Shown piece after piece: positions 1 through 36,114 of a stretch of DNA of 64,000 nucleotides. Every line of letters begins with the position of its first letter. The first letter of the stretch is position 1. Position numbers and translations under genes: made by a program. The notes beneath the pieces were generated by a model, which saw nothing but the letters and a program-made list of their open reading frames with translations, did not search any database and was not told the DNA's origin. Source of the stretch: Promethearchaeota archaeon (GTDB lineage Archaea > Asgardarchaeota > Lokiarchaeia > Sigyniarchaeales > SOKP01); the NCBI GenBank assembly GCA_016839555.1, contig JAEOUA010000003.1:384001-448000 (forward strand). Direction: 5' to 3'.

Positions 1-879
1 ATAATATTTCATGTCTAATTCTTTCTCAAGATTTTCAGCATTTTTTAAAAATTTATTAATTTCTGCTTCATATCGAGTTCTTAATAAATTTAAATGATCT
101 TTTTCTAATTCATATTGGACCCACCTAGTTATAAGAGAATTTCTAATATTGTAGAATATTTGTCTTCTATCATTAAGAAGAAATTGAGTTGTTATACTCC
201 AAAGAGCATATAAAAATGCAATTAATGAATATTGGGCACCAACTGAATCGTATCTATAGGGCCTATTAAAACTTTCTATATCTCGATAATATTCAATAAA
301 AACTAGGCTTTTAATCCATGGCTCTAGCTGATTAAATAGTTCTTGAAATGCTATTAGAAAGAAAGCAAAAAATAAACTTCTCTTTTTCGGAATTTTTTTG
401 GTTTTCCATATATCTGAGAGTAAGTATTTATTAAGATGTTCAAGCGCAAAAAGATGCTGATGAAATAAACCAATAATATATTTTACAAAATCCTTTTCAT
501 AATAAATATACTCTTCTTCTTGTTTTTCTAAATTAATAACTGTTAATGGATGTCTGATGGTAAATATTTGATAATCATGAAAAAGGTTATACTTAAAAAT
601 ATCATTAATGATTTTTGTACATATAGATATTATTTCATTATTTGGCAATGGAAGAGGTTTATAAAATTCAAAATCTTGATTGAATTCTTGGCTAAAGTAA
701 TAATTAAAATAAAATAAATCTCTATCTTCCAATAAATATTCAATTTTCCATTTTTTTATTAAATTTTGAAAATAATTTCCTAATTCTTCAATATCATTAT
801 GTCTAGTATTTACTATTTTTCTTATTTTTTTCTTTCTTTCTTCAATCTCCTTATTCCATACTGCAATCCAATCTGTCAT
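1..879 (-). CDS. hypothetical protein, partial (runs off window start)
   Basis: ATG at 879 (MTDWIAVWNKEIEERKKK...), open frame to position 1; absent from the ORF track because no stop lies in the window. Confidence 0.7.
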   Translation of the reverse strand, partial: MTDWIAVWNKEIEERKKKIRKIVNTRHNDIEELGNYFQNLIKKWKIEYLLEDRDLFYFNYYFSQEFNQDFEFYKPLPLPNNEIISICTKIINDIFKYNLFHDYQIFTIRHPLTVINLEKQEEEYIYYEKDFVKYIIGLFHQHLFALEHLNKYLLSDIWKTKKIPKKRSLFFAFFLIAFQELFNQLEPWIKSLVFIEYYRDIESFNRPYRYDSVGAQYSLIAFLYALWSITTQFLLNDRRQIFYNIRNSLITRWVQYELEKDHLNLLRTRYEAEINKFLKNAENLEKELDMKYY

Positions 880-3426: not shown

Positions 3427-5277
3427 TTATTTATTAATCTTACATTTTTTTAAAAAGACAATAAAATTACTTCCTTTTTTATAATTTCCTGGGATTCTAT
3501 TCTCTATATCTATTTGCCCCCCATATTCCTTCAAAATTTTTTTTACAAGAGATAATCCTATTCCCATTCCACTGGTTTTTTTATGTTTATACTCACGGCT
3601 GAAGATTTGCTCCTTCTGTTTATCTGGAATGCCAATTCCATTATCTTTAAATTCTATTTTTACATAAGTATTCTCTTCTTTTTGAAGCTCGAAGACATTT
3701 ATCCATAACCTTTTTACTTCGCTTTTATTATGAACTATTCCATTAATTAAGATATTTTCAAATGCATCAATTAGGAATTCTCCCCCATAGATCTCTACAT
3801 CTTGATCTAAGGGAGTAAAGTCCATAGAGATATTGCCACTTATATAATGATTTTTTACGCTTTTAATTGATTTTTTTAATACTTCATTAATTTTAACAGG
3901 TTTTATTATTAATTCTTCTTTTTCTATGGCAGAAAGTCTTCTAATATTTGAGATCAAAGATGAGGCGCGATCTATTTGTCTTTCAATAATTTCAATTAAT
4001 TCTTCTATATCTCCAACATCCTTATTCTGTGTAGTTCCCATCTCTATAAGTTCGAAAGAGAATTTTATACTATTGAGGATGTTACTCATATCATGAGCAA
4101 GAATGTCCCGATAAAATTCTGCACGATTAAAGGCCTCTTTATATTTTTGTTCTGATGTTTTCAGTCTTTTTTCCGCTTCAACTTTATCAGTGACATTTCT
4201 TACAAATCCGGAAAATCCTACTTTATTTCCCTTCTCATCATAGCGTAGAGATATAGAGGATTCACCGTATAATGTTCTTCCCTTTTTACTAATAACTCGA
4301 TATTGGAAATTTTTTTGAGACTTTTCCGTTCTAAACACTACGTTAAAAATTTCAAAGGTTTCTTTTGCTTTTTCATGGGTCATATACTCTCGATAATTCA
4401 TTCCCATCATTTCCTCAGATGAATATCCCAACATATCACATAAAGCGGGGTTAAAATAAGTAAAATCTCCTTTTAAATCAACCTCAAAATATCCTTCTAG
4501 TGAAGTTTGAATAATTTTTTTGAATTTTTCTTCTGATTTCTTTAATTGTTGTTTTGTCTCTATTTGAGAAGTCACATCTCGAACGAATCCAGCAAAACCA
4601 ATTTTATTTCCCTCTTCATTATATCTCAAATATACAGAGGATTCACAATATAATGTCTCGCCTTGTTTATTAATAAGTTTATACTGGAAGTTAGTATGAG
4701 ATTTTTCTGTTCTATAAAGTTCATTATATTTTTTAAAAGTCTTTTTTGCTCCCTTTTCAGTCATATAATTTCTATAATTCATCCCCTTCAGTTCTTCAGG
4801 AGTATATTCTAACAAATCACATACAGCAGGATTAAAATAAGTGAAATTTCCCTTTAAATCTACTTCGAAATACCCCTCTTTTGAGTTTTTTAAGATTTTA
4901 TCTGCTTTTTTTAATTTCTGTTCCATCTTGACTCTCTGCGTATAATCCCTAAGGAAGCCAGCAAAACCAATTTTATTTCCCTCTTCATCATATCGTAAAT
5001 AAATAGAAGAATCACAATATATCTCATTTCCATCCTTAGTAATAAATCTATATTGAAAATAAATTCGAGATTTTTCTGTTCTAAACACTTCATTAAATAT
5101 TTGATATGTTTCTTCTGCATTTTCCTCAGTCATATAGTCTTCGTATGAAGTTCCAATGATTTCTTCAGGAGTGTATCCTAATAGTTGAGCGCCTGCGGGA
5201 TTACAATAAGTAAAAATTCCATCTACATTACTCTCAAAATACGCCTCTTTCGTATTTTCCAAAAAATTCTCAATCAC
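3427..5277 (-). CDS. cytoplasmic sensor histidine kinase with three tandem PAS domains
   Basis: three near-identical PAS repeats (EGYFEVDLKG.FTYFNPA...GNKIGFAGF.R), H-box AHDMSN, N-box ENILINGIVH, DNGIGI, GMGIGL. Confidence 0.92.
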   Translation of the reverse strand: MIENFLENTKEAYFESNVDGIFTYCNPAGAQLLGYTPEEIIGTSYEDYMTEENAEETYQIFNEVFRTEKSRIYFQYRFITKDGNEIYCDSSIYLRYDEEGNKIGFAGFLRDYTQRVKMEQKLKKADKILKNSKEGYFEVDLKGNFTYFNPAVCDLLEYTPEELKGMNYRNYMTEKGAKKTFKKYNELYRTEKSHTNFQYKLINKQGETLYCESSVYLRYNEEGNKIGFAGFVRDVTSQIETKQQLKKSEEKFKKIIQTSLEGYFEVDLKGDFTYFNPALCDMLGYSSEEMMGMNYREYMTHEKAKETFEIFNVVFRTEKSQKNFQYRVISKKGRTLYGESSISLRYDEKGNKVGFSGFVRNVTDKVEAEKRLKTSEQKYKEAFNRAEFYRDILAHDMSNILNSIKFSFELIEMGTTQNKDVGDIEELIEIIERQIDRASSLISNIRRLSAIEKEELIIKPVKINEVLKKSIKSVKNHYISGNISMDFTPLDQDVEIYGGEFLIDAFENILINGIVHNKSEVKRLWINVFELQKEENTYVKIEFKDNGIGIPDKQKEQIFSREYKHKKTSGMGIGLSLVKKILKEYGGQIDIENRIPGNYKKGSNFIVFLKKCKINK

Positions 5278-5628
5278 TGATTTCCTTATTTCTTTTGATT
5301 TCTTGATTTTCTATCCCCTTTCCCTATATCTTTTTTTTCGAATTCTTATTTAACAGATAAAGATCCTACTTTAAAAATCTATATATATAATTTTCTGAAT
5401 GTTTTTCAATAAATACTTTTAATCTAATAAAATAATTATAATACAACTTTAAAAATGCTCTTACCTTTTAGAATACCTCTCTTAATAAGATTTTAATTAG
5501 TAAGAAAAATAAAATTTTCGAAATTTAGAAATAAATTAAGAATGAAATTATATGGAAAAAAAACCACTCTATTATTATTTTAATTTATTAAAATAGGAAA
5601 AAAAAGATTGTAAATATTTTAAAAATTT

Positions 5629-24955: not shown

Positions 24956-25948
24956 ATGACACAACCAAAGCTATATTTAATTAAACAAGGAGAATTGAAG
25001 CATATCAAAAAGCCGGTGTTTTCGACTGGAGATGCATACCTTCTCGACGATGAACATACTATATACGTGTGGATTGGAAGTAAATGTTCCGTGGATGAAA
25101 AAACAAGCGCAGCAGCATTAGCACGTTCATTAGATCAAGAACGAGGCGGTTCTGCGAAAATAATCACTGTGGATCAAGGTCAAGAAACCAAAGAATTTGT
25201 AAAATTAATCGCTACTATGGGCGCAATGAAAATTGTTGAGAAGAATATTGCAAAAACAATGCTTAAAGATGTATATACTGGTGATTTTGCGGGATTCACC
25301 GAGCATAAAAATGTGTTATATAGAGTAAGTTCTGAAGAATTTGAAGATATTAATGCTATGAAAATGATACAAGTCCCTTATTCAGTTGATTCGTTAGATT
25401 CAGAAGATAGTTATGTATTGGATTTAGGAACAAAAGTATATATTTGGCAAGGAAATGCCTCTAATGTGAAAGAAAAAGTTAAGGCAGGACAATGGGCAAG
25501 AGGAATTGATGTTGAACGAGCAGGTGCTCAAAACGAGGTAATTTTTGAAGAAGGTAATGATGCGAAATTTATCGAAGCATTAAAAAAGGGACCAGATTAT
25601 AAAGAATCTGAAGCTGCTCAATTACAAGCAGAATCAGAATTAGAAGAAGAGGAGGAGGAAAAACCAAAAATGGAACCTGAACCTGAAGCAGAAAAAGAAG
25701 AAGTAGAAGAACCAAAGGTTGAAGAAGAAGTAGCGGCAGCAAAAGAAAAAGCTCCCGTAAAAAATGAAGAAGGAGTATTAATCATTGAAAAAAAGGAAGG
25801 GAGGAGAGTATGCCCCAATTGCGGAGAAGAAAATCCTCATATGATCCATGAAAGTACGGATAAAACTAATATAGTCATGGATTATCCGAGAGTGTACGGA
25901 AAAAAGTACAAATGTGGAAGATGTGGCACTGAGTGGAAGGAAAAATAA
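24956..25948 (+). CDS. two-domain gelsolin-like protein with acidic linker and C-terminal Zn ribbon
   Basis: gelsolin repeats FSTGDAYLLD..IYVWIG..CSVDEK and LDSEDSYVLD...VYIWQG..SNVKEK; CPNC...CGRC tail. Confidence 0.9.
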   Translation: MTQPKLYLIKQGELKHIKKPVFSTGDAYLLDDEHTIYVWIGSKCSVDEKTSAAALARSLDQERGGSAKIITVDQGQETKEFVKLIATMGAMKIVEKNIAKTMLKDVYTGDFAGFTEHKNVLYRVSSEEFEDINAMKMIQVPYSVDSLDSEDSYVLDLGTKVYIWQGNASNVKEKVKAGQWARGIDVERAGAQNEVIFEEGNDAKFIEALKKGPDYKESEAAQLQAESELEEEEEEKPKMEPEPEAEKEEVEEPKVEEEVAAAKEKAPVKNEEGVLIIEKKEGRRVCPNCGEENPHMIHESTDKTNIVMDYPRVYGKKYKCGRCGTEWKEK

Positions 25949-26093
25949 AGTTTAATTAAGATTCTTTTTTTTATTTCTTTTTTATTTTGTATTATTTTTC
26001 AAGTGAAGAAATATTCTTCAAAATCATTAATTTTGATTAGATTTTTTAACTTTTTAATAAATTCTTATATAGAAATAAAAACAAAGTGATACT

Positions 26094-27248
26094 ATGAATA
26101 GTTTTGAAAGAATGTGGACAGCTTTAAATTTAGAAGAACCAGACATGATGCCCATTCATACTATAAACATCGATGGAAATGTTGCCGATAAAATTTTAGG
26201 TACTACGGATCGGAGTGCATTTAATGTGATTGATGATTTGGAAGAGAAGTTTCCAGATACATGGGTAGATAAGGTCAATGCTATCCTTGATGATATAGAA
26301 ATTGGCGTATTTGCGAAATGTGTGAGAGCTGGATATGAATTGGGATTTGACGGGGTTGGTGTGCAATATATTCCTTTTATATTTGAGAGCAGAGAAGAAA
26401 TGACTGATATATTTGGAAAAAGACATAAGATTAGAGATATTGATGGTAATCCGTATCCTGATTATTATGGGGGATATATTAAAAATCGTGAAGATTGGGA
26501 GGATTATCCAAAACCCGATTTAGATGAAGAATATAAAAAGGCGAAGAGATTTTATAAAGGAGTATTACGTAAATGCCGAGATATTAAAGATGATATCTGC
26601 ATTGTTGCTCAAAATGCATTAACTTCTGTTTTCCCCCCGGTATGGCAGGGGATGGGGATGGCTAATTTTGCCCGCGCTCTAAAAAACGATCCGAAGCTGA
26701 TCGAGGAACGCTTTCGATTTACGACCGACTACACTCTCAAAACATTTGAAGCCTATAAAGATTGTGGGGCAAAGATTTTTTTGGAAGGTGGTGATATTAG
26801 CCATAGTCACGGTCCAATGATAAATCCAAAATATTTTGATAAATATCTATTACCGCGATATCAAGAGGTGGCCGATCAATTGCATGAATGGGATTGCAAA
26901 TATATCCTTCACACCGATGGCGATATAACTTCCTTATTAGACTTCATCGTGGAATCGAGATTTGATGGGCTCCAATGCTTAGAACCCCCATTTGTTGATC
27001 CATATTTAGTAAAAAAGAAAGTGGGAGATAAAATATGCTTATCTGGCAATATTGATACTCGACACATATTATATGATGCGGAAAAGCAGGAAGTGGAAGA
27101 AGCGGTAAAAGATGCAGTAAAAGCTTTGGGACCGGGTGGGGGTGGCATGCTCTCTCCAGCTAATTTCCATCCGGAGATTGCTGTGAAGAATTTAAAATGG
27201 ATGATAGAAGCCGCTAAGAAATATGGAAAATACCCATTGGAGTTATAA
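26094..27248 (+). CDS. uroporphyrinogen decarboxylase-family (MtaA/CmuA-like) protein
   Basis: PDMMP, GM..F, LHTDG, GNID, GPGGG motifs. Confidence 0.85.
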   Translation: MNSFERMWTALNLEEPDMMPIHTINIDGNVADKILGTTDRSAFNVIDDLEEKFPDTWVDKVNAILDDIEIGVFAKCVRAGYELGFDGVGVQYIPFIFESREEMTDIFGKRHKIRDIDGNPYPDYYGGYIKNREDWEDYPKPDLDEEYKKAKRFYKGVLRKCRDIKDDICIVAQNALTSVFPPVWQGMGMANFARALKNDPKLIEERFRFTTDYTLKTFEAYKDCGAKIFLEGGDISHSHGPMINPKYFDKYLLPRYQEVADQLHEWDCKYILHTDGDITSLLDFIVESRFDGLQCLEPPFVDPYLVKKKVGDKICLSGNIDTRHILYDAEKQEVEEAVKDAVKALGPGGGGMLSPANFHPEIAVKNLKWMIEAAKKYGKYPLEL

Positions 27249-27346
27249 GCTTAAAATTAAAAAATTATTAAATTTTAGCCAAAGACATCAATTATTCAAG
27301 CATAATTTATAATTTTAACGAAAGAATTCAAAAAAGAGGAAAATGT

Positions 27347-28069
27347 ATGACAGAATCTAAAAATAATGTGGAAAAGGAAAAAATGGGTCCTACTTGTTAT
27401 AAATGCAATTCTATTAATTATTGTTCTGTGGGGCGGGCAAGTAAGATTTTAGATAATTGTCCCATGAAAATATTCCCTGAAATAGAGAAGCAAGCTAAAG
27501 AATTATATCAAAAAGATGAGAAAATCAAAAAAACAACAAAAGAAGCTTCTATAGTCGAAGCAGAAGGTTATATAAAATGGCCTCGATTGAAAGACACGGT
27601 GGAGTTTGCCAAAAAAATGAAATTTAAGAAACTCGGGCTTGCTTTTTGTGTTGGACTTATTAAAGAAGCTGAAAGAGTAGCAGAAATTCTGGAAAAATAT
27701 GGATTTAATGTAGTGGGGGTTTGTTGTAAAACAGGGTCTTTGAAAAAAACTGAAATTGGGATTCCCGAAGAATATACAATGATATCCAAAACAGGATATA
27801 CCATAGGATGGATCACCTGCAATCCCGTTGCTCAAGCTTTAATTTTAAATAAAGTGAAAACAGACATGAATATTATATGTGGTCTTTGCGTGGGACATGA
27901 TATTACATTCACCCAGCTTTCTGAAGCACCCGTCACCACTCTAATCGCTAAAGATAGATCGACGATACATAATCCCGCTTCAATATTATTCTCACATTAC
28001 GGGCAAGAATTCTTTAGCAAAGAATTCAAAGAAATGAGAAAAAAAGAATTAGAGTCAAATAAAAAGTAA
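27347..28069 (+). CDS. DUF1847 domain-containing protein
   Basis: GLAFCVGL, VCCK, CNP, GLCVGHD, TTLIAKDR. Confidence 0.85.
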   Translation: MTESKNNVEKEKMGPTCYKCNSINYCSVGRASKILDNCPMKIFPEIEKQAKELYQKDEKIKKTTKEASIVEAEGYIKWPRLKDTVEFAKKMKFKKLGLAFCVGLIKEAERVAEILEKYGFNVVGVCCKTGSLKKTEIGIPEEYTMISKTGYTIGWITCNPVAQALILNKVKTDMNIICGLCVGHDITFTQLSEAPVTTLIAKDRSTIHNPASILFSHYGQEFFSKEFKEMRKKELESNKK

Positions 28070-28121
28070 AGAAAGAAAAAAATATAAGAGGATTATTTTT
28101 TTTTGAAATTTTTTATTAGAT

Positions 28122-29744
28122 CTAAATTACTCTTATAGTTCTTTTAATAATTCCAACGTTTCCAAAATTATCTGTTACTTTAAATTTCACATCGTATATA
28201 CCTGGTTTATTATATGCATGTTTTGTAAGGATAATGTTGCTCGTGTCTCCATCACCAAAATCCCACTCAAAATCTATTGCAATACTTTCTGGACAATAAA
28301 AGACTGTAGGAAAAAAAATAGCAGAATAGCCTACTGGAACTGGATAAGGTAATACTTCAAAAAATCCAGAAGGAGTTTCGATTCCTTCTTTCTTTTCTAT
28401 AAATTGTTGAAGATTTTTTAAATTTCCATCGCTTTCTTTTATTTTTTTTGTTGGAATATTTAAAATTCTCTCTATTATTTCGATATGTGCTTTTGTAGCT
28501 CTTTCAAGTCTATCTGGTGGACATTTTTCAATCGTATCCTCTTTCGTATGATAAAAAATAGATTTACCAATGATCATTATTGATGGAACGTTGGAAAAAA
28601 CTAATGGTCCTAAATCACTAACCGGTAAAGTTTTTGCAGAAACATAAGCAGCGGGTAACATTTTATATTTAAGAATAGCATCCATAACTATAGGAGTTAA
28701 TATAGGATTATCTGTAATAAATAAACCCCGTTTTTCATCCCTACCTGTCTTAACAACTCCTCCATCAGCTTGATTATAATAACCATTAGAAGCTAAGCCA
28801 TCCAGCATAATAAAGGTTGCTATTTTTTCAAGCATATCTTGATGCATTTTAACAAATTTATTTACTCCAATCAGACCTGCTTCATGTCCAGTCCATCCGA
28901 CAAACTTGATAGTCTTATTTATTTTATCTTGTGGAAGGTCCGCAAAATATTTCGCCATAGCAATCATGCCCGCATTGGCAGCAGCATTATCCATCGCTCC
29001 CGTAAATGTTGAATCAGTATGAGTACCCACCAAAATAATATCATCGGTTTCACCCGGAATAGTACCTATAATCATATTACTTGTAGCTTTTTCTGTTTTA
29101 ACGTACTGAATGAGATTTACTTTCAATTTATTATTATTTCTTAAACAAAAGGATTTTAAATACTGTCCATCCTTATTGTTGACAGAAAGAGCAGGTAATC
29201 TTCGCTTCCAACCATACATTGACATATAAAAGATATAAGTTAGTAGATCCAGAGGAGATCCATTAATAAAAATGGCCCCTAATGCTCCATTCTCTTTTGC
29301 TATTTCTAAAGAATTAAATATTCGATCCGTATAAGAAGGATAAAAATTAAGAACCATTTTTCCTTCTACTAAAACGATTTTATTTTCAACCGAAATATTT
29401 TGAAAATCAACCGCCGTCCCATTACCTAAATAAACTAATTCTGCGGTGATCCCCTCAGGTTCAGTGGATCCACTTAACCAAACAGGAAATGATTCAATAA
29501 TCTGATCATTTGAAATAGAGGGGATGTTTTCACTTAAAATCTTAAGCTTATAATCCTCGGCCCACCATCTTCGGAATTTAAATTCTTCCTTTTGAACATC
29601 AGATAAGCCAATATTTTTTAGCTCTTGAAAAATATACTCTTCTGCTTGGAGAGCTGGTTTAGTTCCTGCTCTACGATAACCAAAATCGCATAAATTTTTC
29701 ATATGATTATATATTTCTCGCCCATTTATATCATTAATATTCAT
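28122..29744 (-). CDS. M28 family peptidase with PA domain and C-terminal PKD domain
   Basis: HTDS, GAMDNA, GHE.GL, SD, YHT.ED; WDFGDG PKD motif. Confidence 0.88.
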   Translation of the reverse strand: MNINDINGREIYNHMKNLCDFGYRRAGTKPALQAEEYIFQELKNIGLSDVQKEEFKFRRWWAEDYKLKILSENIPSISNDQIIESFPVWLSGSTEPEGITAELVYLGNGTAVDFQNISVENKIVLVEGKMVLNFYPSYTDRIFNSLEIAKENGALGAIFINGSPLDLLTYIFYMSMYGWKRRLPALSVNNKDGQYLKSFCLRNNNKLKVNLIQYVKTEKATSNMIIGTIPGETDDIILVGTHTDSTFTGAMDNAAANAGMIAMAKYFADLPQDKINKTIKFVGWTGHEAGLIGVNKFVKMHQDMLEKIATFIMLDGLASNGYYNQADGGVVKTGRDEKRGLFITDNPILTPIVMDAILKYKMLPAAYVSAKTLPVSDLGPLVFSNVPSIMIIGKSIFYHTKEDTIEKCPPDRLERATKAHIEIIERILNIPTKKIKESDGNLKNLQQFIEKKEGIETPSGFFEVLPYPVPVGYSAIFFPTVFYCPESIAIDFEWDFGDGDTSNIILTKHAYNKPGIYDVKFKVTDNFGNVGIIKRTIRVI

Positions 29745-29999
29745 AATTAATTCGCCATATAATTTGAATTAAGATTTGATATAAAATGTTACTTTTTCAA
29801 TTTTAGAAAAATTCTCTAGAAAATAGCATCTTTTTCAAATTTAAAGGATACTCTATAGAGGAAAGCATAATAAGAAATTAATAAGAAAGTAGAAAATAAA
29901 AAAAAGTGGAGGATTATTATTTTTTGAAAAATGATAAATTGCAATGATAAATATTGATGGATTTAATCCATTTTCTATTAATCATTTACATTCTATAAC

Positions 30000-30230
30000 C
30001 TACATTTTGGAACCGCATCCAATTATTGTCTGACATTTACTACAGACATATACCTCGAGCTGCTTTTCTTTAATAAGTCCAGCACTTATATAAATGGGTG
30101 TTGTTATACGCATTGAAAAGATATCTTCTGATTTTGCTCTGCCTTTATTATCAAGGAAAACCTTAATCTCATTTTTACAAAAGGGACAGATTACTGTGGG
30201 GGGTAATTTACTTGAAGCCATATTTATCAC
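30000..30230 (-). CDS. small zinc-ribbon protein
   Basis: CPFC ... YVCSKCQTIIG; GGAGTG RBS. Confidence 0.7.
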   Translation of the reverse strand: MINMASSKLPPTVICPFCKNEIKVFLDNKGRAKSEDIFSMRITTPIYISAGLIKEKQLEVYVCSKCQTIIGCGSKM

Positions 30231-30451
30231 TCCTTTTTTTAATTTAAAATAATAATATAAATAACAAAGAAATATTGATAATTTAATAAATTATCTAATG
30301 AAAATTTTGGTATGCAAAGGGAGGTTCTTTAAAATATTTCGTTATTTAGAAAATGCTTCTAGTAAAATTTTTAAAAGAAAATTTAAAAATATTAGAAATT
30401 TATAGTTTTAAAATGATTAATAAGAGAGAATAGAATATATTTCCTTTACGA

Positions 30452-31783
30452 TTAGGATTTTGATAAATCTCTTCTTAAAATCTTTATTTTCTTTTTAAGT
30501 TCAACGATTTCCTTATCTTTTTTTTCAATTGAAGTTTCCAATTTCAAGTTCTTATCTTTAGTTTCTTGCAAATCAGTCAGTATTTTGTCTTCAATTTTCT
30601 CTCCCTCCATTAACTTCATTTTTAATTGTTCATTTTCATTTTTCATTGTTTTTAGTGATTCATCTCTTTCTTCCACCATGTTTCTCAAATTCGAGATTTC
30701 CACCTCAAATTTACCAAATTCCTTGCCGGTTTGTTGATCCTTTTGTTCAAGTTTTGTTTCCAAACGATTTATATATTCTTGCTTTGAAATAATATCTTGC
30801 TTTAATTTTTCATTATTTAAAACTAATGTGTTTAGTTTTTCTTTTTTAGTTTTAAGATCTTTTTCAAGTAAATTCATATTTTCTAATTGCTGCATTAGCT
30901 CCCCTTTATTATCGTTCAATTGAGCTAAGGAGTTTTGGAGTTCAAAAATCTCCTTTTCCTTTTTTGTAAGAAGCTCATCTTTTTTTTCCACTAAAATTTC
31001 TAATTTTTCATATTTAGCTTTTTGAACAGAATCACGTTTTATATATTGGATTTGCTCTTTTAAATCATCAATTTCTTGCTTTTTTTCCTCTATCTGGTTC
31101 ATTAGAACTACACTTTCTTTTTGCGTTGTTTTTAATGATTCTAATTTATTCCTTGTTTGCTTAAGCTCTTGATTTTTTTCTTTTAATGAATTATTAATTT
31201 GTTCAATTTGGTTTTGAAGAATTTTAATTTGAGAATTAAGATTTTGAATAGATTTTTCCTTATCTTCAAGTTGAGTGTTTAATTCATCAACTTCTTGCTC
31301 CTTATTAGTTAATTCCTGTTTTAGATCTTTGATTTCAATTGCTTGGGCTTCTTTAACTTCAATCTCTTGATTTAATTCTTCTGTTGTTGTTTCTAATTTT
31401 GTGATTTGCGTCTCCTTTTCTTGAATAGAATTCTCTTTATTTTCAAATTGGGAAAGTAATTCTTCAATTTCCTGATCCTTATTTTTTAGATCTTCTTTTA
31501 AATTTCGTATCTCATCCGATTGAGTTTCTTTTTGAACAATATCCTCAGTTATATCTTTAATTTTTTGTTCTAATTCATTTTTCTCTTCTGAAAGCGTATT
31601 AATTTGTTCTTTTAATTTTTTATTTTGCTCTTGTAATAAATTCAGCTGCTCTGAAACAGTTTTCTCATCTTTGAGGTCTGACTTTTTTGTTTCCTCTTCC
31701 ACCCACCCTAAAGAAGAGAGTGCATCTGAGATGGGATTATCTTCTTTCTTTTCTTCGGAATTATTATTATTATTTTCTCCCAT
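30452..31783 (-). CDS. long coiled-coil protein
   Basis: about 400 aa of continuous E/K/L/Q heptads with an internal 59-aa duplication. Confidence 0.8.
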   Translation of the reverse strand: MGENNNNNSEEKKEDNPISDALSSLGWVEEETKKSDLKDEKTVSEQLNLLQEQNKKLKEQINTLSEEKNELEQKIKDITEDIVQKETQSDEIRNLKEDLKNKDQEIEELLSQFENKENSIQEKETQITKLETTTEELNQEIEVKEAQAIEIKDLKQELTNKEQEVDELNTQLEDKEKSIQNLNSQIKILQNQIEQINNSLKEKNQELKQTRNKLESLKTTQKESVVLMNQIEEKKQEIDDLKEQIQYIKRDSVQKAKYEKLEILVEKKDELLTKKEKEIFELQNSLAQLNDNKGELMQQLENMNLLEKDLKTKKEKLNTLVLNNEKLKQDIISKQEYINRLETKLEQKDQQTGKEFGKFEVEISNLRNMVEERDESLKTMKNENEQLKMKLMEGEKIEDKILTDLQETKDKNLKLETSIEKKDKEIVELKKKIKILRRDLSKS

Positions 31784-31832
31784 ATATCAAGTTCACATTT
31801 TAAGTTTGATAGAATATATATAGAAATTTTTC

Positions 31833-32348
31833 CTAAAATTCTTTATCTTTCTCATCTGAAATTTTAAAGACAAATTTTCGATCAAGAAAAAATTTCGTAA
31901 TATAACCTACTGATAATGCTACTACAATACTTACCTCTAATGGGGTTTGAATAAAATTCGTAAGAAGGAATTGAATTCCGATATTTTCCAAGGTTGTCAA
32001 GATAGCAAATAGAAAATATTTCAGGAATTCAAAAGATGTTTCTTTCAATTTTATTTCCTTTTTTTGAAACACAATGAATTTGTCAAGAATATATTTCACG
32101 AGGTAGGTTATCCCTACAGCTATAACTGAGCCAATTAATTCGGGCATATTATAGGGATAAATAGAGCAATAAAAATTATAAACAAAATTGATATGATCTA
32201 GACTTTCACAAATTAATGGTGCAAAAAATAATTGATTAGATTTTTGTATTAGATAATTTAGTAAAATCATGCAAATAGCGAATAAAAAATACAGAAAAAT
32301 TTGTTTTCTAATATCATTATCTTTCTGGATATCATTGTTTTTTTCCAT
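31833..32348 (-). CDS. GtrA family membrane protein
   Basis: duplicated K(Y/F).LD(K/R).FVF motif, 4 TM. Confidence 0.8.
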   Translation of the reverse strand: MEKNNDIQKDNDIRKQIFLYFLFAICMILLNYLIQKSNQLFFAPLICESLDHINFVYNFYCSIYPYNMPELIGSVIAVGITYLVKYILDKFIVFQKKEIKLKETSFEFLKYFLFAILTTLENIGIQFLLTNFIQTPLEVSIVVALSVGYITKFFLDRKFVFKISDEKDKEF

Positions 32349-32357
32349 AATAATTAC

Positions 32358-32669
32358 CTATTTCTCGAATTTATACCCGCAAATAGGGCAAAAATTATAA
32401 TTTTCATCAATTATTTCTGCTCTACAGTTAGGACAATACAGTATTTTTTTTTCTTGCTGATTTTGATAGTTTTTAATTTTTGATCTGAGATTACTTTCAT
32501 TAGATTCCTCAGATTGATCCCTTCGTTCTGAGGTATCTCTTAGACTATAAGTCATTGGAAGAATACAAAATAGGGGAAATAAAAAGAATCCATTAATGAA
32601 TATAGTTAAAAGAAGAGAGATAATTGTAATGATAATTGCAATAATAAGACAGAGTATATTTAATCTCAT
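32358..32669 (-). CDS. membrane-anchored zinc-ribbon protein
   Basis: N-terminal hydrophobic hairpin and YCPNC...FCPICG. Confidence 0.75.
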   Translation of the reverse strand: MRLNILCLIIAIIITIISLLLTIFINGFFLFPLFCILPMTYSLRDTSERRDQSEESNESNLRSKIKNYQNQQEKKILYCPNCRAEIIDENYNFCPICGYKFEK

Positions 32670-32740
32670 AATAAAAAGTAATTAATATTGTTAAGTAAAA
32701 TAGATATTAGTTAATATATAAAGATTAGTTTTGAGAGTAT

Positions 32741-33373
32741 TTAATCTAATCTCTCTTTCCATGCATCGGTTTTATTATTTTCTAATTCTTGACTACTTCT
32801 TGTTTCTGATTCAGCTTTTTCCATTTCTGAATTTTTAGACTTTATTATATCATCATATTGTATTATTCCCTCTCCAGAAGTTTCTTGTGAGGCAGGAGAA
32901 AGCATTTCCATCATTTCTTTCGTCATACTTGCTTTTTGTTTTCCTGTGATTTTTTTGTAAATAAATGTAATAAGATAAAAAATTAGAGAAAATGCAAGCG
33001 AAAAAAGAAAATAAAGAACAAACCAACCGCTTCCAAAAAGAGGTATCTCAAAAGGCAATAATCCCGAACTATAATCAGAGTATACAAAACTTAATCCTAT
33101 AAATATACCAATAAATATAAAACAACGAATACACATTGGAATAAATTGTCGTTTCATCATATCTTTTGTAAGCGCCATTGCTTCCATCTGAACTTCCTGC
33201 ATCATCCGAGGGTCTCCAATCATCTGAGCATTCTTTAATCTCTCTTGTAAATTTTTAGCTTTCATTCTCCTTTCCTTCATTTTGCTTCCTGTTAAACCAA
33301 AGATATAATTAAAAGCTAAACCAAGGGCTACCATACCCAAGCTTATTAGCATAATTTGAATCCATACTTCCAT
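32741..33373 (-). CDS. EMC3/TMCO1 (DUF106, Oxa1-superfamily) membrane insertase-like protein
   Basis: TM1, Met-rich coiled-coil hairpin, QFIPM-TM2, LPF..P..GW..LYFL.S TM3. Confidence 0.82.
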   Translation of the reverse strand: MEVWIQIMLISLGMVALGLAFNYIFGLTGSKMKERRMKAKNLQERLKNAQMIGDPRMMQEVQMEAMALTKDMMKRQFIPMCIRCFIFIGIFIGLSFVYSDYSSGLLPFEIPLFGSGWFVLYFLFSLAFSLIFYLITFIYKKITGKQKASMTKEMMEMLSPASQETSGEGIIQYDDIIKSKNSEMEKAESETRSSQELENNKTDAWKERLD

Positions 33374-33452
33374 TTTTATACACCTTTACATAGATATATG
33401 TACTAAATAATTTAAACATCTTTGTTTAATTTTAAATGAATTATAATTATAG

Positions 33453-34541
33453 CTATAAATTTCCACGAATAATATTTCTAATATACTTTTCAAAAAGAGT
33501 GGGCCATTTAGCACTAAGGCTTGAACTAATTGCACATCCAAGGCGACAACCGTCACAAAAAGTGAAATTATCATGCCTTTTCATAATTGTTTTCACTTTC
33601 TTTGAATTAAATACTGATTGTAAGGATTTAGTTAGAGCATTGAAATTAATAATTGGATGAATTTTGCAAGGAAAACTAATAGTACCATCATGTCGTATAA
33701 AAAGGTATGTTTCTGCCACATGACAGCGCATGATTTCTTGGTTTTTAGGAACGCCTCCAAATCCACCGCCTTCAATAACTTGAATGCTATATCTATCTGT
33801 GAGTATATTTTTATACTTTTTTTGTAAAAAGCTAACAAATTTTGCCCAAAGATGTAAATCAGGAATAAGATTATTCAGATTTTCTGCCTGAAATTTATTT
33901 CCATTGTAAGTTCTAATAATATTTTCACAAGGATACATCTCAATCGAACAATTAAAATTTTTAGCTAGATCGCATATTTTTGGAAGAAATTTTATATTTG
34001 ATCTCATCACATTTGTACTGATGATTATCTTAATATTTTTTTTATTTGCTAACTTAATTGATTCGAGAACTTTATTGAAAACAGATATTCCACGAATTTT
34101 ATCATGTTGCTCAGCAAAAGGGAAATCTAGTGAAATAAGGATATAATTTAATCCTTTTAAAAGATTATTCTTAAATAAGTAAGGTAAATGATAACCATTT
34201 GTAGCTAAACCTGTTATTAAATTTTTATGTATTCCCGCATATCTAATTAATTCTGGTAAATCTTCTCTAAGAGTTGGCTCTCCACCCGTAAAAGAAAGAG
34301 AAATAATTCCTAATTCAGCAATTTGATTAATAATATATTTAATTTGATCTGTTGTCATTTCATGTTGCTTTAGCCCTTCAGGAATGGTGGGAATATAGCA
34401 AAATTGACAATTCGCATTACAGCGCAGAGTTATTTCGATTTGTGCAGAATAAGGAATTTTTCTCTCTGTAAAAGTATTAAGTAGAAAATTTCTAAAATAA
34501 ATAAGAAATTTCTTTTTTATATTTATCAAGGGAAATACCAC
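33453..34541 (-). CDS. radical SAM protein with C-terminal SPASM/Twitch-like Cys cluster
   Basis: CNANCQFC, FTGGEP, TNG; C...C...CDGCRLGC. Confidence 0.92.
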   Translation of the reverse strand: MVFPLINIKKKFLIYFRNFLLNTFTERKIPYSAQIEITLRCNANCQFCYIPTIPEGLKQHEMTTDQIKYIINQIAELGIISLSFTGGEPTLREDLPELIRYAGIHKNLITGLATNGYHLPYLFKNNLLKGLNYILISLDFPFAEQHDKIRGISVFNKVLESIKLANKKNIKIIISTNVMRSNIKFLPKICDLAKNFNCSIEMYPCENIIRTYNGNKFQAENLNNLIPDLHLWAKFVSFLQKKYKNILTDRYSIQVIEGGGFGGVPKNQEIMRCHVAETYLFIRHDGTISFPCKIHPIINFNALTKSLQSVFNSKKVKTIMKRHDNFTFCDGCRLGCAISSSLSAKWPTLFEKYIRNIIRGNL

Positions 34542-34764
34542 CAGAAAAACTTATATACATAATAAAATCATCCTTAAAAATTATTAAATTTAACTTTTCA
34601 ATTTATAAAAATAAAGAAAAAAAGAAAAGAAAATGGATTTTTAAATAAATTATTATTTAAAATTTAGCTCAGGAACCATAATTAAGCCATTAAATAATTC
34701 AGAAACAATTTATTCAATACTTTTTATGGTTTAAAATTTTATGAAAAGAATCATTAAAATCAAT

Positions 34765-35118
34765 TTAACGAACTTCTGTGCCGCATCTTTTGCAAACATA
34801 TTTTTTCGCATAAATTTTCAATCCGCCTTGTTGATGAAGCACCCGAGATTTATCTGATTCTTCCTTAAAATCTGTTCCGCCACAATTTGGACAAACTCGC
34901 CTTCCTTCTATTTTTATTAGCCCACTCTCTACTTCTTCCTTCTCCTTTTCTTTTTTAGCAACTTCAGAAGGTTTTTTTGTTGAAATTGATTCGATTTTTA
35001 TCGAAGATTCTTCAGATTTAATTGAGGCCGAAGATTGACCAGATCCAAGCAAAGAATCTAATTTCTCATTCATTGTTTCAAGAAGATTTATAACTTTTTT
35101 TTCAAATTCCTCAGACAT
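34765..35118 (-). CDS. small protein: N-terminal short coiled coil, linker and Zn ribbon homologous to the gelsolin tail
   Basis: EGRRVCPNCG...DK...YAKKYVCKRCGTE; AGGAG RBS. Confidence 0.82.
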   Translation of the reverse strand: MSEEFEKKVINLLETMNEKLDSLLGSGQSSASIKSEESSIKIESISTKKPSEVAKKEKEKEEVESGLIKIEGRRVCPNCGGTDFKEESDKSRVLHQQGGLKIYAKKYVCKRCGTEVR

Positions 35119-35667: not shown

Positions 35668-36114
35668 TTATCTTCTTTTACCTTCTACTTTTTCTAAGTA
35701 ATCCAAAATAGCTTCTTTAATTTCCTTAGCGGGATAAATTTTACGATATTGATAGACATAATTTAGGGCATCTTCCCATGTCCATTCAGGATGCTCTTTT
35801 AATAACCAGGCAATTATAATAGCGCCACTCCTAGATATACCCATCGAACAATGAACTAGTACTTTTCCATTTTTTATATGTACATCAATGAAATCTAAAA
35901 TTTCAGCTAAAAATTCATGAGGCGGATAAGTATCATCTGGGAATCCCTTAAATAGGTAAGCAAAATTATTTGGGGGTTCATAAAGCTCATCTTCCATTAA
36001 ATTAACTATAGCAGTAATCTTTTTTTTATTCAACTTCTCAAAATTAATTTGAGGCCAATATGCACCAATATACAGTCTTTCGGTAATTTGATAGATATCA
36101 TCCAGATCCGGCAT
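35668..36114 (-). CDS. dual-specificity protein phosphatase
   Basis: VHCSMGISRS (CX5R) motif, ITERLYIG. Confidence 0.93.
   Translation of the reverse strand: MPDLDDIYQITERLYIGAYWPQINFEKLNKKKITAIVNLMEDELYEPPNNFAYLFKGFPDDTYPPHEFLAEILDFIDVHIKNGKVLVHCSMGISRSGAIIIAWLLKEHPEWTWEDALNYVYQYRKIYPAKEIKEAILDYLEKVEGKRR

Follow-up and report, generated by a model that had tools for sequence, protein, structure and literature searches.

A C-terminal zinc ribbon shared by a two-domain gelsolin and a small helical protein belongs to a discrete Asgard family carried mainly by coiled-coil proteins

Few regulators of the archaeal actin cytoskeleton have been studied biochemically, and the Asgard gelsolins are among them. 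The closest described system is Loki2DGel (KKK44901.1, PDB 7WHG), a two-domain gelsolin (2DGel) comprising two gelsolin domains, a 69-residue link and a potential zinc-binding domain, named 'Zn' (PMC9433394). The Zn domain exhibits a (CxxC)2 motif and a conserved loop tyrosine, is located exclusively at the C-terminus of 2DGels and of unrelated multi-domain Lokiarchaeal proteins, also exists as small stand-alone proteins, and was not consistently detectable outside the Lokiarchaeal lineage (PMC9433394). The last 109 residues are unresolved in the Loki2DGel crystal, and the biochemistry of Ca2+-regulated actin severing and sequestering covers only the orthologues Loki2DGel and MKD1-2DGel (PMC9433394). 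The function of this tail is an acknowledged gap. We analysed a stretch of 64,000 nucleotides from a Promethearchaeota archaeon (assembly GCA_016839555.1, contig JAEOUA010000003.1, positions 384,001 to 448,000), hereafter the window, which encodes two proteins ending in such a ribbon, namely the gelsolin P0001 and the small protein P0002 (Table 1).

Two eukaryotic systems resemble these proteins in layout. In villin, a flexible linker connects the gelsolin repeats to a small C-terminal domain that folds independently and provides a second binding function, and P0001 has the same succession of core, linker and small terminal domain. The likeness is limited to the layout, as the villin headpiece is helical and binds F-actin, whereas the domain studied here is a zinc beta-ribbon for which the published assay with rabbit F-actin was negative. 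GRIP-domain golgins consist of a long coiled-coil rod followed by a small C-terminal domain for localisation. Four further ribbon proteins of the same genome, P0003 to P0006, have a similar layout, with a short conserved head, a long rod and a small C-terminal domain, but show no sequence or fold relation to golgins, so that this is an analogy only.

With regard to P0001, PF00626 matches in two stretches (E=2.9e-29, 101.2 bits against a curated cutoff of 21), and chain G of PDB 7WHG aligns with it from end to end, including the linker and the tail (E=4.6e-132). The core also aligns with G1-G2 of eukaryotic gelsolin and villin and with Thor 2DGel3. Judged by sequence, P0001 is a full-length orthologue of Loki2DGel, and its ribbon corresponds to the published Zn domain in sequence similarity, (CxxC)2 motif and C-terminal position. 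The CPxCG...CxxCG ribbon begins at E281 (nucleotide 25796), and its cysteines, C286/C289/C320/C323, show the (Cys-X-X-Cys)2 arrangement; the equivalent residues in P0002 are C76/C79/C109/C112. A first-pass annotation of the window had proposed that both proteins share this domain, and this holds: 24 of 52 positions are identical between the two tails (BLASTP E=2e-12), and both open reading frames (ORFs) are as it had described them. It had also allowed that the motif might be a generic zinc ribbon, which is not the case. A ribbon profile finds exactly eight copies in the 3.74-Mb genome, with E-values of 1e-21 to 1e-26, whereas the next match has E=0.05. The R-x-x-C-P-x-C-G motif, a D, Y-x-K, C-x-x-C-G and all four cysteines are invariant across the eight paralogues, and among PDB sequences their profile matches residues 284-333 of 7WHG_G (E=4.9e-15). 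Pfam and NCBIfam scans of all ribbon types gave nothing at curated cutoffs and assorted zinc-ribbon matches below them, including PF08271 (best 25.0 bits, cutoff 29) and PF01096 (19.3 bits, cutoff 21), both under their gathering thresholds. Because of the eight strong copies, the gap to the next match and the lack of a curated model, we consider the ribbon as a discrete family, and both tails as homologous C4 zinc ribbons of this one Asgard family.

The AlphaFold2 model of P0002 shows a ribbon with a long beta-hairpin (strands 84-97 and 100-109), and the ribbon-only model of the gelsolin type has hairpin strands 26-37 and 42-49 with an invariant D-Y-P at the tip. The ribbons of TFIIS domain III and the Rpb9 C-terminus (PF01096), NrdR and TFIIB (PF08271) likewise exhibit two CxxC knuckles, a three-stranded sheet and a long hairpin, and in these classical long-hairpin ribbons the tip also carries conserved residues. 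In contrast, R-x-x-CPxCG, E/D-D-K, Y-x-K-K and the DYP tip are specific to the present family, which is terminal on cytoskeletal and coiled-coil proteins, whereas the classical ribbons are found on transcription factors. Fold searches with the whole P0002 model and with the ribbon alone gave nothing significant, as no Foldseek match reached E<=0.001 (E>=0.11). The best structural neighbour is the NrdR ribbon (Z 4.2, root-mean-square deviation 2.5 over 41 residues); the fold matches, at Z 3.0 to 4.2, are in keeping with no more than a generic zinc-ribbon fold, and 1TFI, with Z 3.2 and a Foldseek probability of 0.98, is below significance. The other nearest folds, those of TFIIS domain III, Rpb9/A12.2/C11 and Rpp21, are not significant either.

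Besides P0001 and the 117-residue P0002, with its short helix, linker and ribbon, the eight copies comprise P0007 (69 residues, contig 9), a nearly bare ribbon with 83% identity to the P0001 tail; P0003, P0004 and P0005 (274, 296 and 263 residues), encoded in tandem on contig 5, with an MSI(D/N)WQ head, a long coiled coil and the ribbon; P0006 (242 residues, contig 12), with the layout of this triplet; and P0008 (76 residues, contig 5), in which a hydrophobic N-terminal segment precedes the ribbon, making it a transmembrane (TM)-anchored copy. An exhaustive profile search of 1.84 billion representative proteins recovered 536 clusters at E<=1e-3, of which 188 have E<=1e-10. Among the 148 best matches, the last cysteine lies at most 12 residues from the C-terminus in 141; the exceptions are multi-ribbon proteins or short-tailed carriers. 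According to a home-made heptad heuristic, which gives approximate classes, the N-terminal part of these 148 is a long coiled coil in 56, a short coiled coil in 16, P0002-like in at least 12, absent in 17 (bare ribbons), a TM segment in 2, and other or low-complexity in 45, the latter including two-ribbon Ala/Pro-rich proteins. In Pfam, nearly all of the recognised N-terminal parts belong to generic coiled-coil families, the longest carriers receive no domain assignment, and recognised cytoskeletal domains other than gelsolin are not enriched. The portability of the module, as proposed in the first-pass annotation, is thus borne out by its position, usually behind a linker, and by the variety of its carriers, whereas the cytoskeletal enrichment that would have supported its view of the carriers was not found: they are mostly anonymous coiled coils, a composition of the census that is new here. 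The Ala/Pro-rich proteins with two ribbons (P0011, P0013, P0017, P0021 and P0027) are 480-600 residues long and share a conserved internal GKGKI(K/T)E(I/V)(I/T)W segment without a Pfam domain; Ca. Sigynarchaeum springense (L060) has a 601-residue ORF of this family.

Three subtypes of the ribbon can be defined, the gelsolin type, the P0002 type and the coiled-coil type. In a maximum-likelihood tree of 49 ribbons and 60 columns, which is mostly unresolved inside the window's family (f1), the P0002-type ribbons form their own clade with 100/100 support and a long branch, while free ribbons of about 65 residues cluster with the gelsolin tails. The free and fused gelsolin-type ribbons of the sister family (f3) also group with 100/100 support; one 'free' sequence in the tree (G133, 82 residues) is cut by a contig end and is possibly an incomplete gelsolin. 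Whether free and fused ribbons evolved in concert was considered, but the tree has too few columns for a decision within f1. An alignment of 40 free and fused gelsolin-type ribbons from 17 genera has a mean column identity of 67%, with R, CPxC, E, D, DYP and CGxCG invariant. P0002, in contrast, retains just the family-wide strand tyrosine of Y-A-K-K and exhibits Q-G-G at the tip instead of D-Y-P. The tails of P0001 and P0002 are thus homologous but belong to different subtypes, a split that is new here, and neither a shared partner nor mutual competition is implied. This weakens the suggestion, made in the first-pass annotation, that P0002 competes with the gelsolin. The closest relative of the P0001 tail is the free ribbon of about 65 residues, of the P0007 type, and as P0007 is 83% identical to this tail and the P0002 ribbon lies in a separate subfamily, the free P0007-type ribbon is the better candidate competitor.

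P0002 itself represents a conserved family. In the AlphaFold2 model, residues 3-25 form a helix, and this helix and the ribbon are modelled with confidence, whereas the linker, residues 26-66, has low confidence; this agrees with a succession of short helix, disordered linker and ribbon, the helix being a candidate coiled coil. A linker also precedes the ribbon in P0001, where residues 216-280 have a net charge of -15 and where both length and sequence of the linker differ from orthologue to orthologue. With the N-terminal part of P0002 alone as query, seven other clusters of 108-141 residues were found, and the alignment of the eight clusters has 17 invariant columns. They share an amphipathic helix, an E-G-R-R-x-C ribbon and a Q-x-G-G tip; the linker varies but contains an invariant K-P-S motif (P50 and S51 of P0002 are invariant). 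P0002-type orthologues occur in seven genera, and the nearest ESM Atlas clusters, of 82 and 58 members, are unnamed, with Promethearchaeota as the commonest phylum. This helix-linker(KPS)-ribbon family is new here and has no description in Akil et al. 2022, and the same is true of the subfamilies, the gelsolin synteny and the adjacency of a free twin. A P0002-type protein close to the Lokiarchaeal ones is also present in a metagenome-assembled genome (MAG) labelled Hodarchaeota DZ1B.338 (L061, L062), which may reflect a mislabelled or mixed bin, or a transfer.

The range of the ribbon was surveyed in 400 genomes of the phylum. It is present in all 134 genomes of f1, with 3-16 copies each, in all genomes of the other families of the same order (4-9 copies) and in all genomes of the other orders of the same class (1-3 copies). 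In many other Asgard families most genomes have exactly one copy, with E-values of 1e-13 to 1e-19 (for example 30 of 31 genomes in family f13 and 12 of 12 in f18), while no copy was found in family f16 (22 genomes). Five complete genomes from other classes encode the single copy as a free ORF, 48-103 residues long and with the same signature. Named records with the ribbon include Freyarchaeia, Heimdallarchaeum aukensis, Hodarchaeota, Atabeyarchaeia, Sifarchaeum, Borrarchaeum and Sigynarchaeum. This range extends the published one, corrects the impression of a domain confined to the Lokiarchaeal lineage, and suggests that the domain is older than Lokiarchaeia, as a single-copy free protein. It further suggests that the free single-copy ribbon is ancestral, and that Lokiarchaeales expanded and fused it. 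The sole non-Asgard match is in an Ignavibacteria MAG (L063; 34% identity, E=5e-5 among candidates), which is likely due to chance or contamination.

We compared the gelsolin neighbourhoods of 16 genomes. The layout of gelsolin, linker and ribbon is kept in 13 of 13 sampled f1 genera and in five f3 genera, while the gelsolin ORFs of family f4 have just 208-282 residues. Fourteen of the 16 neighbourhoods contain a small ribbon gene at most 11.4 kb from the gelsolin gene, nearly always in convergent orientation. In f1 this is usually a P0002-type gene, at 2.8-11.4 kb (genera g1, g4, g5, g7, g11, g12 and g13); genus g2 has a free ribbon of the gelsolin type 156 bp downstream of the gelsolin. In f3, four of the five sampled genomes encode a free gelsolin-type ribbon at 84, 149, 2390 or 4314 bp from the gelsolin. 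With about eight copies per 4 Mb, a second ribbon copy within 10 kb is expected by chance in a few percent of genomes, related genomes being non-independent. The conserved linkage of the gelsolin gene with a free ribbon or with a P0002-type gene is new here, and the free twin of the gelsolin's ribbon is conserved, its gene often adjoining that of the gelsolin. As f3 lacks the syntenic block that surrounds the pair in f1, the free ribbon beside the gelsolin there is a stronger hint of a functional or historical tie, which could result from fusion with, or duplication from, the neighbouring gene. In one f3 genome (G143), the gelsolin linker has PEPVQV-type pseudo-repeats, which are absent from the gelsolin of G135; the G143 gelsolin fits the published description of MKD1-2DGel, from which we infer a link to strain MK-D1.

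Based on these observations, we favour, with a probability of roughly 0.55, a function of the zinc ribbon as a portable C-terminal docking handle for a cellular partner. The strict C-terminal position, the varied N-terminal parts, the disordered linkers, the conserved non-cysteine residues, including those of the hairpin tip, and the occurrence of free copies beside fused ones all argue for it. The small, basic and rigid ribbon would be kept at a distance from its cargo (short helix, long coiled-coil rod or gelsolin core) by the flexible linker and would bind the partner through its long beta-hairpin. The ancestor would have been a free single-copy ribbon of about 50 residues present across Asgard archaea; in Lokiarchaeales, it would have multiplied to 3-16 copies per genome, split into subfamilies and been appended to the C-terminal ends of further proteins, the two-domain gelsolin among them. 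In P0002, the short N-terminal helix is likely the cargo or oligomerisation end, which would make it a small adaptor, and the gelsolin could have a competitor or regulator of its docking in the free twin of its ribbon. If the domain predates Lokiarchaeia as a single-copy protein, its partner is probably an old Asgard component; candidate ligands include nucleic acid, an acidic lipid, an acidic protein surface and the ribbon itself, by self-association. The idea of a docking tail is not new: the Zn domain was already proposed to bind a cellular feature or complex (Akil et al. 2022, Commun Biol 5:890, PMC9433394), so that the central proposal of the first-pass annotation is a rediscovery.

Several observations weigh against a docking handle. 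Neither published work nor the present analysis identified a partner. As the hairpin tips differ among the subfamilies (DYP, QGG and Y-x-G), the subfamilies need not share one partner. In the published assays, co-sedimentation of the Zn domain with rabbit F-actin was negative and no bundling was seen (PMC9433394), which leaves the obvious cytoskeletal partner unsupported. In f1, gelsolin and P0002 are linked within a block of about 15 syntenic genes, a linkage that may have been inherited passively. Among 15 loci outside the Lokiarchaeal lineage, the neighbours of the free ribbon are conserved among close kin only. Finally, the structural neighbours, although none is significant, are nucleic-acid-associated ribbons. 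The latter point would fit a ribbon that binds nucleic acid, with carriers associated with chromatin or RNA and a tail tethering the gelsolin to nucleic acid. The basic character of the ribbons (net charge +2 to +9) and the weak, sub-threshold matches to TFIIB and TFS models are in keeping with such a function, which we nevertheless find unlikely, since no structural match is significant and no curated nucleic-acid-binding family matches at its cutoff; moreover, the neighbouring genes are not transcription or translation genes, and a nucleic-acid tether on an actin-severing protein is not known to have a precedent.

Alternatively, the ribbons could bind each other, such that free ribbons, gelsolin, P0002 and the coiled-coil proteins co-assemble, with the free ones capping or competing. 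Free and fused gelsolin-type ribbons occur together in nearly every f1 genome, are often adjacent, and are more alike within a family than the same class is between families (100/100 in f3), as would be expected if they co-evolve. Independent duplications, or an evolving partner common to both, would however give the same tree pattern, the tree has only 60 columns and is mostly unresolved inside f1, and outside Lokiarchaeia the single free copy has only itself to pair with, so that this model is also unlikely, marginally more so than binding to nucleic acid. A second actin site specific for Lokiactin, analogous to the villin headpiece, by which the gelsolin and the dimeric coiled-coil carriers would cross-link or side-bind filaments, seems improbable to us. 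The villin-like layout of the gelsolin and the Lokiactin gene in the same window are consistent with it, and the published negative was obtained with rabbit actin and not Lokiactin; yet this negative lowers any actin-binding reading, Loki actins and rabbit actin are highly conserved at the residues that bind 2DGel (PMC9433394), and the free ribbon also occurs in lineages and contexts without a link to actin genes. Complex prediction of the gelsolin-type ribbon with Lokiactin and the gelsolin core scored 0.02 against a mark of 0.32 and carries no weight either way. Equally improbable is a ribbon without a shared ligand, acting as a stable C-terminal cap or folding nucleus, or binding acidic lipids non-specifically through its Lys-rich face. 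Whereas the dominance of coiled-coil and low-complexity carriers, the basic ribbon and the TM-anchored P0008 could be explained in this way, the conservation of the single-copy free form across many Asgard classes, and of surface-type residues that are strictly kept, D-Y-P at the tip of the hairpin for instance, speaks for a specific role of the ribbon itself.

A bolder form of the docking handle is rather unlikely, but less so than these alternatives: the ribbon could be the address tag of an undiscovered Asgard-wide hub, that is, a conserved complex or structure to which the single-copy free ribbon binds in most Asgard classes. Lokiarchaeales would then have re-used the tag to station the Ca2+-regulated gelsolin, coiled-coil tethers or rods and P0002 adaptors at the hub, and the free twin beside the gelsolin would be a competitive regulator of gelsolin placement. 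Such a hub would represent a prokaryotic precursor of modular cytoskeletal targeting.

With regard to the other genes of the locus, P0002 and five genes on the same strand form a run that is conserved across f1 and lies tail-to-tail with the gelsolin (Table 1). The gene for a 443-residue coiled-coil protein at the end of this run adjoins the gelsolin tail-to-tail in most f1 genera, including g2, which lacks the remainder of the P0002 block; in the window, four extra genes sit between the two. This protein may be a conserved gelsolin-associated coiled-coil protein. The dual-specificity phosphatase gene, two genes upstream of P0002, is syntenic in several genera. The Lokiactin gene encodes the best actin of the genome, with 97% identity across the family, and is located about 16 kb from P0002 and about 26 kb from the gelsolin.

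Table 1. Coordinates of the features discussed (positions in the window, unless a locus of genus g12 is named)
Feature	Position	Strand	Basis or remark
P0001, two-domain gelsolin with linker and C-terminal zinc ribbon	24956-25948	+	330-aa ORF; Loki2DGel orthologue
P0001 gelsolin core, residues ~1-215, two gelsolin repeats	24956-25600	+	Pfam, two stretches; ordered part of 7WHG_G
P0001 acidic Glu/Pro/Lys-rich linker, residues ~216-271	25601-25768	+	Charge; variability among orthologues
P0001 gelsolin-type zinc ribbon with preceding strand, residues 272-330, D-Y-P hairpin tip	25769-25945	+	Alignment; AlphaFold2
Four extra genes between gelsolin and 443-aa coiled-coil gene	26094-30230		
76-aa CxxC...CxxC protein, unrelated to the ribbon family	30000-30230	-	No Pfam match
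Same-strand run conserved with P0002 across f1	30452-34541	-	Synteny of 16 genomes; Pfam
443-aa coiled-coil protein without ribbon	30452-31783	-	Synteny
GtrA-like	31833-32348	-	Pfam
103-aa TM protein with PF13240 zinc ribbon, unrelated to the ribbon family; part of the block	32358-32669	-	Pfam
EMC3/DUF106-like	32741-33373	-	Pfam
Radical SAM/SPASM	33453-34541	-	Pfam
P0002, 117-aa helix-linker-ribbon protein of a conserved small-protein family	34765-35118	-	ORF; 7 homologous representative clusters
P0002-type zinc ribbon, residues 67-117, Q-G-G hairpin tip	34768-34920	-	BLASTP against gelsolin tail; own clade
P0002 low-complexity linker, residues 26-66, K-P-S motif (49-51)	34921-35043	-	Predicted local distance difference test (pLDDT) 51-63
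P0002 N-terminal amphipathic helix, residues 3-25	35044-35112	-	AlphaFold2 pLDDT ~90; conserved SEFExKVLxLLxxINxKLDxLL
Dual-specificity phosphatase	35668-36114	-	PF00782, E=2.1e-19
Lokiactin, 381 aa	51578-52723	+	
g12 insert, genome G188	L014, ~5300-5331		
g12 insert, genome G185	L027, ~5145-5174		
g12 insert, genome G189	L095, ~264-293	-	

Three genomes of genus g12 have inserts of 32, 30 and 30 nucleotides within the P0002-type gene, in the region of the second zinc knuckle; the inserts contain stop codons and internal hairpins and occupy two different positions, and in other g12 genomes the gene is uninterrupted. The predicted RNA structures of the inserts are hairpins with flanking internal loops, not canonical bulge-helix-bulge motifs, and removal of a 25-nucleotide GT...AG segment was tried and did not restore the frame. 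A literature search found no report of such inserts in Asgard protein-coding genes, while heavily interrupted Asgard tRNA genes have been described. The inserts are candidates for small RNA-level intervening sequences (mini-introns), translational bypass elements or recent inactivating insertions. When exactly 32, 30 and 30 nucleotides are excised, the canonical ...GGVKIYAKKY(I/V)C-x-x-CG... ending is regained, and each of the three genes has intact codons downstream.

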